From Candidatus Woesearchaeota archaeon (GTDB taxonomy: Archaea; Nanobdellota; Nanobdellia; Woesearchaeales; ARS49): a stretch of 64,000 nt of DNA. The position numbers and the translations under genes were made by a program. How positions within the stretch are numbered: position 1 is the stretch's first letter; every line of letters begins with the position of its first letter. The stretch spans positions 3,013-67,012 of the forward strand of contig JASMHM010000004.1 in NCBI GenBank assembly GCA_030750765.1, read 5' to 3'. Of this stretch, positions 50,166-51,195 are shown piece by piece. Under the pieces are notes generated by a model, which searched no databases, was not told the DNA's origin, and was given only the letters and a program-made list of their open reading frames with translations.

Positions 50166-50462
50166 TTACTCTGAAAGGTGCTCTCTAAGGTAAGCTCTGC
50201 CGTCGTTAGAGTGCAGTACCCAGAGCTGTTCGTCTCTCTCGTATCCTGCCTCGGCGAGTAGTTGGCGTCTTGCGGTAGTGTCGAAAGCGACATATTGCCT
50301 GGATTTGTCGTCGACAAACGTCAAAACTCCGTTCTGCTGATTCCACATGCTGAGGTCTCCAAATAGGCCGTCCTCCACCTCGATGGTTTTGCCGACCACG
50401 GTTTCTGGGGCGTCGTCAATAGGGATGAACTGCGATACGTCGATGGGTTGTAGTGTGCGCAT
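50166..50462 (-). CDS. small protein, paralog A of an uncharacterised family (NGVLxFV … HSxDG(G/R)xYL)
   Basis: 98 aa. Shares conserved blocks with the two upstream neighbours. Confidence 0.55.
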   Translation of the reverse strand: MRTLQPIDVSQFIPIDDAPETVVGKTIEVEDGLFGDLSMWNQQNGVLTFVDDKSRQYVAFDTTARRQLLAEAGYERDEQLWVLHSNDGRAYLREHLSE

Positions 50463-50489
50463 GATGTTCTGTAAGGGATGCGCGCTATT

Positions 50490-50876
50490 TTAATATGTCC
50501 TATAGGTGGGGCGAAAATCGGCCCTTCTGTCTGGGGGCAATCTTTTGAGGATCTCAATGCTGATGGGGTGGAAACCTTCTTTAGGGGGCTCGCTCAGGAT
50601 TTCTGCCTTGATGGCCAAAAGCTCGTCGAGAAACTCGCCTCCGTCTTCGCTATGAGGCACTCGCCATGTTCCTTGCGTGTAGCCCCAGTCTAGCAATGGT
50701 TGCAAGTTCTCAGGGGTGTCTTTTCCGATGTATACGAACAGGTCTCTGACAAAGGCGAGCACGCCATTACTGCGGTTGTACTTCTGTGCTGCACAGGGCA
50801 TGATGTCTATGTTTCTGCGCTCACCCTCGATTATCTCGACGGTGCCGTACGCTTGTATAAAGTTGTTTAAGCTCAT
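50490..50876 (-). CDS. small protein, paralog B of the same family
   Basis: 128 aa: KYNRSNGVLAFV…YIGKDTPENL…VPHSEDGGEFL. Confidence 0.55.
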   Translation of the reverse strand: MSLNNFIQAYGTVEIIEGERRNIDIMPCAAQKYNRSNGVLAFVRDLFVYIGKDTPENLQPLLDWGYTQGTWRVPHSEDGGEFLDELLAIKAEILSEPPKEGFHPISIEILKRLPPDRRADFRPTYRTY

Positions 50877-50913
50877 GGCAAAAAAGGGCCCTCTTTCGAG
50901 GGTGGCCTTAGTC

Positions 50914-51195
50914 TTACTGTAGACTTCGGAGGTATTCTCCGCCGTCGTTACTGTGTGGCACGTAGAAGCTGCCTGGCTCGAAGTTTAGTGCTTCTAGCAC
51001 TGCTACATTCTCGCTGGTGTCGCGTCCTATGTGGACGTCGCAATCTTGGTCTACTGCGACTAGTACGCCGTTGTTGTGGCTGTACTTTCCTCTGCTGTCT
51101 TTTCTACCTTTCTCAACGGTTTCGTTGCCTCTAAGGCCTTTTCTTTCAGTTGTGCCTGTTACAAGCACGAAGTTTTCAATATTCATTGTTATCAC
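50914..51195 (-). CDS. small protein, paralog C of the same family
   Basis: 93 aa: KYSHNNGVLVAV…HIGRDTSENV…VPHSNDGGEYL. Confidence 0.55.
   Translation of the reverse strand: MITMNIENFVLVTGTTERKGLRGNETVEKGRKDSRGKYSHNNGVLVAVDQDCDVHIGRDTSENVAVLEALNFEPGSFYVPHSNDGGEYLRSLQ

Follow-up and report, generated by a model that had tools for sequence, protein, structure and literature searches.

The window analyzed here is a stretch of 64,000 nucleotides from a Candidatus Woesearchaeota archaeon (assembly GCA_030750765.1, contig JASMHM010000004.1, positions 3,013 to 67,012 of the forward strand), and at 50166-51195 in the window's own numbering it carries three adjacent minus-strand genes, referred to below as paralogs A, B, and C. 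Paralog A (50166-50462), the most divergent of the three copies, encodes 98 amino acids (aa), with a domain core at 50193-50441. Paralog B (50490-50876) encodes 128 aa, its domain core at 50637-50873 being followed by a C-terminal tail at 50490-50636. Paralog C (50914-51195), the best-conserved copy, encodes 93 aa from a GTG start, or 90 aa if the in-frame ATG three codons further in is used, and consists of a single NNG/VPHSN domain with its core at 50935-51183. The open reading frames (ORFs) are exactly those described in an initial annotation made from the sequence, the listing placing them 27 and 37 bp apart, and the GC content of the array, 0.48, does not stand out from the mean of about 0.47 for the window. 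That annotation took the three genes for rapidly diverging members of an unnamed family and suspected an immunity, anti-defence, or mobile-element module. Our analysis shows that all three genes genuinely encode proteins and are old, separately encoded copies of a single undescribed alpha/beta domain of ~85 residues. They are chromosomal genes of a marine member of the DPANN archaea.

Paralogy within the array is evident from the alignment of the three proteins. An alignment with MAFFT has 16 invariant columns, including N-G-V-L, D-T, and V-x-H-S-x-D-G, which confirms the conserved blocks noted in the initial annotation in the form NNG(V/I)L, D-T, and V(P)HS(N/E)DG. The three copies are 28-43% identical among themselves, and, as had been proposed, B and C resemble each other most (BLASTP at a database size of 1e6: 40% identity, E 9e-13, versus 34% identity, E 4e-5, for A and C), while the relation of A to B is seen only via orthologs and the family profile and not in pairwise BLASTP. 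The profile hidden Markov model of the domain matches each of them over about 80 columns (E 1.9e-19 for A, 1e-17 for B, and 3e-26 for C). An NNG hairpin, an AGY helix cap, and a V-P-x-S-N loop are complete in B and C, with LNF in place of AGY in C. In A, the motif positions hold QNG and VLHSN, so that a near-invariant Pro is absent; the ortholog of A in a second species, described below, reads VPHSNDGG where the window has VLHSNDGR (Pro to Leu, GG to GR). Tandem Repeats Finder reports no tandem or low-complexity repeats in the three genes, and the similarity is not an artefact of that kind. No signal peptide or membrane segment is found in the three proteins, which should thus be cytoplasmic.

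The size of the family was not apparent from a word-indexed protein search, which returned only six members. An exhaustive HMMER search with a profile of six sequences against 1.84 billion cluster representatives yielded 338 at E<=1e-3 and 104 at E<=1e-10, supplying the further members that the initial annotation had proposed to look for. When the top 150 representatives were re-scanned with the profile, 96 of the 150 proteins had two domain copies per chain (mostly 230-330 aa, about 240 aa being typical), 44 had one, and 11 had three, with single cases each of four, five, and seven to eight copies. The consensus of 157 domain instances reads G-t-Y-x2-NNG-v-l-AFVD-x2-G-x2-yVg-p-x-T-x-e-x3-a-L-x2-AGY-x2-g-x2-yVP(f/H)SNG(E/D), and two subtypes can be distinguished, one single-domain with "ATGT-E ... 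VPHSNDGG," which includes A, B, and C, and the other mostly two-domain with "VPFSNGE-P-D." Most of the genomes sampled have one copy. Fusions to other domains are rare, comprising an APH-type kinase (P0102) and a conserved 600-aa region in proteins of ~915 aa (P0025 and relatives). The latter (P0025, P0148, and 41 homologs) have two N-terminal NNG/VPFSN domains followed by the 600-aa C-terminal region, which carries the motifs HAT-Y, TTFDAT, RN-HTALNH, and GSWGD, finds no match in Pfam or PDB, and may be an uncharacterized enzyme; the 41 homologs are all "hypothetical" proteins of the candidate phyla radiation (CPR). The protein with seven to eight copies (P0007, 951 aa; L010:8001-10856 and L011:6267-9122) has charged helical linkers between them. 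Its host is a non-CPR-looking bacterium in which the neighboring genes encode SPOR, GidA, TrmE, and glycoside-hydrolase proteins, a context that indicates that the family exists outside CPR and DPANN too.

Neither single-sequence nor profile searches against Pfam-A, PHROGs, PADLOC, NCBIfam, and PDB sequences gave a significant match, bearing out the statement that the conserved blocks match no nameable family, and the opposite outcome, assignment to a characterized housekeeping family, did not arise from the profile searches. When 50 members were scanned with Pfam at E<=1, each model matched at most one of them, and none of the known immunity families (Imm, SUKH, SMI1, and others) was matched. 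Confident AlphaFold2 models were obtained for C (predicted local distance difference test score, pLDDT, 80.8; predicted template modeling score, pTM, 0.75; 6 sequences) and for B (pLDDT 88.6, pTM 0.79; 50 sequences), and on these models the two proteins have a common predicted fold with the same order of elements: two short N-terminal strands forming a hairpin, a three-strand meander, a helix, a short strand, a loop, and a C-terminal helix. The NNG and FVD-x-x-G turns are placed on the meander, T-x-E ... AGY on the helix, and VP-x-SN forms the loop. A Foldseek search against BFVD returned nothing below E 0.3, and no DNA-binding fold or motif was detected in the domain. Domains with a PH-like beta-meander and a C-terminal helix (Pob3/SSRP1, FERM-PH, Rpn13 Pru) are counted among the closest known systems. 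NNG/VP(H/F)SN is thus an undescribed domain family with a predicted fold, "new" here meaning that it has no match in Pfam, NCBIfam, PHROGs, PADLOC, PDB sequences, or BFVD.

The family is found mainly in CPR bacteria, with a few members in DPANN archaea. Scanning one genome per GTDB species with the pattern VPHSND[GCS]G, which is biased to the H subtype, gave 20 confirmed loci; 16 of these are titled Saccharibacteria, Paceibacterota, Parcubacteria, Staskawiczbacteria, Vogelbacteria, or Patescibacteria, three come from "uncultured Gammaproteobacteria" bins, and one is named only as "bacterium." The two-domain proteins of ~915 aa are named in Shapirobacteria, Levyibacteriota, Dojkabacteria, and one Woesearchaeota bin, and some members lie on archaeal-looking contigs, for example one with Cdc6-type AAA and TrmB genes (L012). 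Identity among the CPR orthologs of ~104 aa is 42-60%, on a par with the 46-59% of RecG in these genomes; the CPR ortholog behaves as a conserved core gene and not as a fast-evolving conflict gene. This taxonomic spread fits earlier work in which it is mostly hypothetical families that distinguish CPR and DPANN, and in which Woesearchaeota have many bacterial-type genes (PMC8204110). The lineage-enriched hypothetical families of CPR and DPANN (Castelle 2021, PMC8204110; Meheust 2019 as cited in PMC8204110), which were defined by clustering, resemble ours in having no predicted function and in being concentrated in ultra-small, probably episymbiotic lineages of both Bacteria and Archaea.

The array itself recurs in a second species of Woesearchaeota, represented by a TARA scaffold (L001-L003), with the same three genes in the same order. 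In L001, the order is PAC2, C (95 aa), B (126 aa), A (97 aa), a 1.1-kb gap, and then a 156-aa gene, a helix-turn-helix (HTH) gene, and a 222-aa gene, with PAC2, C, B, and A in the same direction and separated by spacers of 36-59 bp (55 bp from PAC2 to C). The presence of ortholog pairs in the same order in both species implies that the duplications predate the species split and that the genes are real. Between the window and L001, the ratios of nonsynonymous to synonymous substitution (dN/dS, Nei-Gojobori) of the ortholog pairs are 0.38 for A (49% aa identity), 0.29 for B (65%), and 0.37 for C (78%), all well below 1 and with dS of 0.4-1.2; those of the conserved neighbors, PAC2, the 156-aa gene, and the HTH genes, are 0.01-0.07, with 0.04 for PAC2 (88% identity) and 0.01 for the 156-aa gene (98%). 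Each of the three copies is therefore under purifying selection that is much weaker than that on the neighbors, and the description of the paralogs as rapidly diverging holds in this comparative sense. The tail of B, ~45 aa with two predicted helices, is kept in the L001 ortholog (65-69% identity). The proteins encoded by A and B are deposited as the hypothetical proteins QF486_05115 and QF486_05120 of a Candidatus Woesearchaeota archaeon metagenome-assembled genome (MAG), and their exact sequences are unchanged in 14 contigs and four NCBI accessions (MAGs) from marine samples. Given these identical sequences, A and B are not hypervariable within the population.

The array occupies a variable slot between two conserved borders. 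Upstream lies a PAC2-family gene (proteasome assembly chaperone-like; 51710-52414, minus strand), which has the same direction as C, B, and A, and downstream lies the 156-aa gene (48545-49015, minus strand), which has a weak winged HTH (wHTH) signal. Using the 156-aa protein as bait, we retrieved 15 metagenomic loci, in 14 of which it is 59-76% identical and in the fifteenth 45%, and the arrangement of PAC2, a variable stretch of 0.9-3.4 kb, the 156-aa gene, and HTH genes of 189 and 222 aa is kept in L039-L051. None of the 15 loci has a family member, the slot genes differ from locus to locus, and six more distant Woesearchaeota loci have unrelated genes there. Since the slot content is variable and family members are absent from these 15 loci, the array is accessory and restricted to the lineage of the window and L001, and the initial annotation was right to treat it as an accessory module. 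Between C and PAC2, the window has a 123-aa gene (51342-51713, plus strand) with a signal-peptide-like N-terminus (MRIFRNLGLAAAVVATMGGASVHA), which overlaps the PAC2 stop by 4 bp and does not belong to the family. The L001 locus, otherwise syntenic, lacks this gene, the second lineage-specific occupant of the slot. The array could derive from a CPR transfer followed by triplication.

The accessory character had been considered the stronger because the array follows a "repeat-rich arm" (49016-50165), and in this respect our results differ, as the arm belongs to the 156-aa gene and is present in relatives without the array. It contains no tandem repeats, only short dispersed boxes, and it aligns end to end with L001 (L001:8734-9860) at 76% identity overall and 85-92% in 49016-49615; synonymous sites of the neighboring genes differ at 47-68% between the two species, which is near saturation. 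The mismatches show no codon (3-nt) periodicity, which indicates that the arm is not coding, and a search of Rfam at E<=1 found no match in it. With nhmmer, the core of the arm (about 49175-49445 in the window) is recovered from five more distant loci (E 4e-9 to 5e-6), in each case upstream of the 156-aa gene, the element being seen in this position in L039, L040, L045, L048, L049, and others. In an alignment of 13 sequences, its iterated boxes take the form (T)GTC(G/A)GGA(A/T)n, all oriented as the 156-aa gene, and the 600 nt upstream of this gene show an enrichment of about 80-fold in such boxes over the rest of the loci; the only two exact GTCGGGAWWWT sites in the window both fall in these 600 nt. 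Two other readings of the arm were tried and rejected. A structured RNA is unlikely, as RNAalifold on 10 sequences gave -0.5 kcal/mol, three pairs, and no covariation, and membership in a module with the paralogs does not hold because the boxes stand upstream of the 156-aa gene in relatives that have no paralogs. Judged from the alignments, the arm is best described as a conserved DNA-level array of cis-elements belonging to the 156-aa/HTH cluster, independent of the paralogs, and it may serve the adjacent wHTH proteins as an operator array or else be an origin-like region. The cluster in question comprises the 156-aa gene and two plus-strand genes at 47979-48548 and 47366-48034 that encode coiled-coil plus wHTH proteins (weak HTH_11 and FUR-like matches); it is conserved and always adjoins the non-coding box array. 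Inside the same non-coding region, a near-perfect palindrome (49692-49725, GCGCCAC...GTGGCGC) precedes a run of T on the plus strand and is kept in L001 in a block of 84% identity. Elsewhere in the window, an ORF of 1160 aa (19277-22759, minus strand), perhaps a large surface or repeat protein, lies in a stretch of extreme AT skew (-0.54 at 20-22 kb).

What the three proteins do is a matter of interpretation, for which the architecture of the family offers a starting point. Most relatives have two to eight linked copies of the domain, with charged helical linkers, and this predominance of linked copies suggests that the working unit is probably a multi-domain array. By this logic, A, B, and C would assemble non-covalently as a hetero-oligomer equivalent to the fused proteins, and the helical tail of B may be the retained counterpart of a linker-type helical segment. 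The likeness to stand-alone versus fused repeat domains (Rosetta-stone or split-gene cases) lies in organization only, with separate adjacent genes here and two to eight linked copies in most relatives; we found no sequence or fold in common with any named repeat family. The conserved residues are mostly formers of turns and helix caps (NNG, D-x-x-G, T, AGY) together with one VP-x-SN loop, a pattern that would favor a binding or scaffold role over catalysis, with the loop as the likeliest contact site. Taken as a whole, the explanation of the array as paralogs of an undescribed domain, held in a variable slot and acting as a multi-copy binding or scaffold unit, is to us evenly balanced between right and wrong, and it stands as high as this because its descriptive parts are well supported; the hetero-oligomer step, taken by itself, is somewhat more doubtful than that.

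Several points weigh against this explanation. The case for hetero-oligomerization is one of fusion (Rosetta-stone) logic, and the single copy in most of the sampled genomes means that the domain clearly can work without paralogous partners, at most as a homo-oligomer. A non-enzymatic role is likewise suggested by the residue pattern alone, and the His-Ser-Asn-Asp of VPHSNDGG, kept in the single-domain subfamily, could be catalytic or bind a metal or ligand there. In a neighbor-joining tree (83 columns, 200 bootstraps), A, B, and C were monophyletic in 0 of 200 replicates, and on this tree a single triplication cannot be told from separate acquisitions. Finally, A of the window, without the invariant Pro, may be decaying.

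The alternative that fares best, which we consider possible if unlikely, is that the copies are independent monomers that have undergone sub- or neofunctionalization, each with its own ligand or partner as a small sensor or adaptor, forming no complex and having only ancestry and perhaps a promoter in common. The single copy in most genomes fits this, as do the low identity of three copies that are each kept by selection, the conserved helical tail present in B alone, and the differing fusion partners, the APH-type kinase in one protein and the 600-aa region in others. An automatic IMG label of A as "ligand-binding sensor domain-containing protein" points the same way; however, no Pfam match at E<=1 reproduces it, and neither A nor 50 relatives match a two-component regulator propeller or sensor repeat family at that threshold. 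The dominant architecture of two or more linked copies argues instead for cooperation between domains.

A role as an accessory factor of DNA recombination, repair, or topology, with the domain binding DNA or a DNA-processing enzyme, seems to us improbable. It is suggested by the genes that adjoin family members elsewhere. The gene lies directly upstream of recG and in the same direction in L020 (5956-8543) and L028 (2-2464), and two genes upstream of it in L019 (5992-7086), which has two tandem copies; these three loci are titled Paceibacterota and Saccharibacteria. Other members are directly upstream of mgsA (L017), follow ruvB closely (L029), or adjoin gyrA (L008), topA and dprA (L036), and dCTP deaminase (L004). 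However, an all-vs-all BLAST of flanking ORFs from about 25 loci and a Pfam census of 93 neighbors found no family common to more than three loci, recG in its three loci being the only recurrent neighbor. Housekeeping genes are densely packed in CPR and DPANN genomes, and by a rough estimate, not computed, the overall share of neighbors involved in DNA metabolism is not above expectation. The array in the window has no such neighbor, and the domain shows no sign of a DNA-binding fold. The adjacency to recG is thus a weak lead.

The immunity, antitoxin, anti-defence, or mobile-cargo reading of the initial annotation, in which small fast-evolving paralogs would neutralize toxins or host or symbiont defences, is in our judgement highly improbable. 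As in polymorphic-toxin immunity arrays and anti-CRISPR or anti-defence clusters, the genes are small, tandem, and divergent, and they sit in a variable slot, here held jointly with another lineage-specific gene; their dN/dS is 4-30 times that of the conserved neighbors, and such conflicts are plausible in hosts that are episymbionts (PMC8204110 for lifestyle). Unlike those systems, however, the array has no cognate toxin, no mobile element, and no match in defence or phage libraries (PADLOC and PHROGs models match none of A, B, and C). The genes around the array in the window encode PAC2, TatD, TctA, an LD-carboxypeptidase, a methyltransferase, a Na/Ca exchanger, a membrane protein, and three wHTH or coiled-coil proteins, and Pfam scans of these neighbors detected no toxin domain (RHS, LXG, CdiA, nuclease, and others) and no integrase; the nearest tRNA is 9.5 kb from the array. 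The search for toxin or nuclease genes beside homologous arrays, which the initial annotation had proposed, extended to about 30 loci and found no toxin, nuclease, secretion, defence, integrase, or mobility gene, and no relatives were found in IMG/VR, INPHARED phages, or PLSDB plasmids (IMG/VR scans and tblastn). The array shows no compositional anomaly and, again unlike immunity or anti-defence arrays, is stable across species, its relatives lying in chromosomal housekeeping contexts; the identity of A and B in 14 contigs and the RecG-like conservation of the CPR orthologs also argue against it. Weakest of all, to the point of being negligible, is the reading as spurious ORFs or decaying functionless pseudogenes, which could cite the absent Pro and the 49% identity of A to its ortholog and is countered by the intact state of all three genes in both Woesearchaeota species at dN/dS values well under 1, by matches to a profile drawn from hundreds of relatives, and by the confident in silico folding of B and C, for both of which it is refuted.

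A large part of microbial diversity falls within CPR and DPANN, and about one in two genes of these organisms lacks a functional assignment. Against this background, a protein of ~100 aa that is conserved like RecG across several CPR lineages, occurs in DPANN as well, and has a strong tendency toward multiple copies is of interest, and its confidently predicted fold without a solved relative makes it a tractable target for structural and genetic studies in cultivable Saccharibacteria; one family member, P0218, comes from a Nanosyncoccaceae MAG. The novelty here lies in the protein family and its predicted fold, with no new biological system demonstrated. The locus also illustrates that tandem, small, divergent paralogs in a variable slot are not by themselves evidence of immunity or anti-defence. 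A bolder hypothesis, to which we give a small share of our confidence, is that the domain represents a new fold and family of ultra-small episymbionts (CPR and some DPANN, exchanged between the domains of life), acting as a multivalent cytoplasmic adaptor of two to eight copies for a conserved core process, possibly RecG-type DNA transactions. If so, the array in the Woesearchaeote would be an inter-domain acquisition that was subsequently triplicated.

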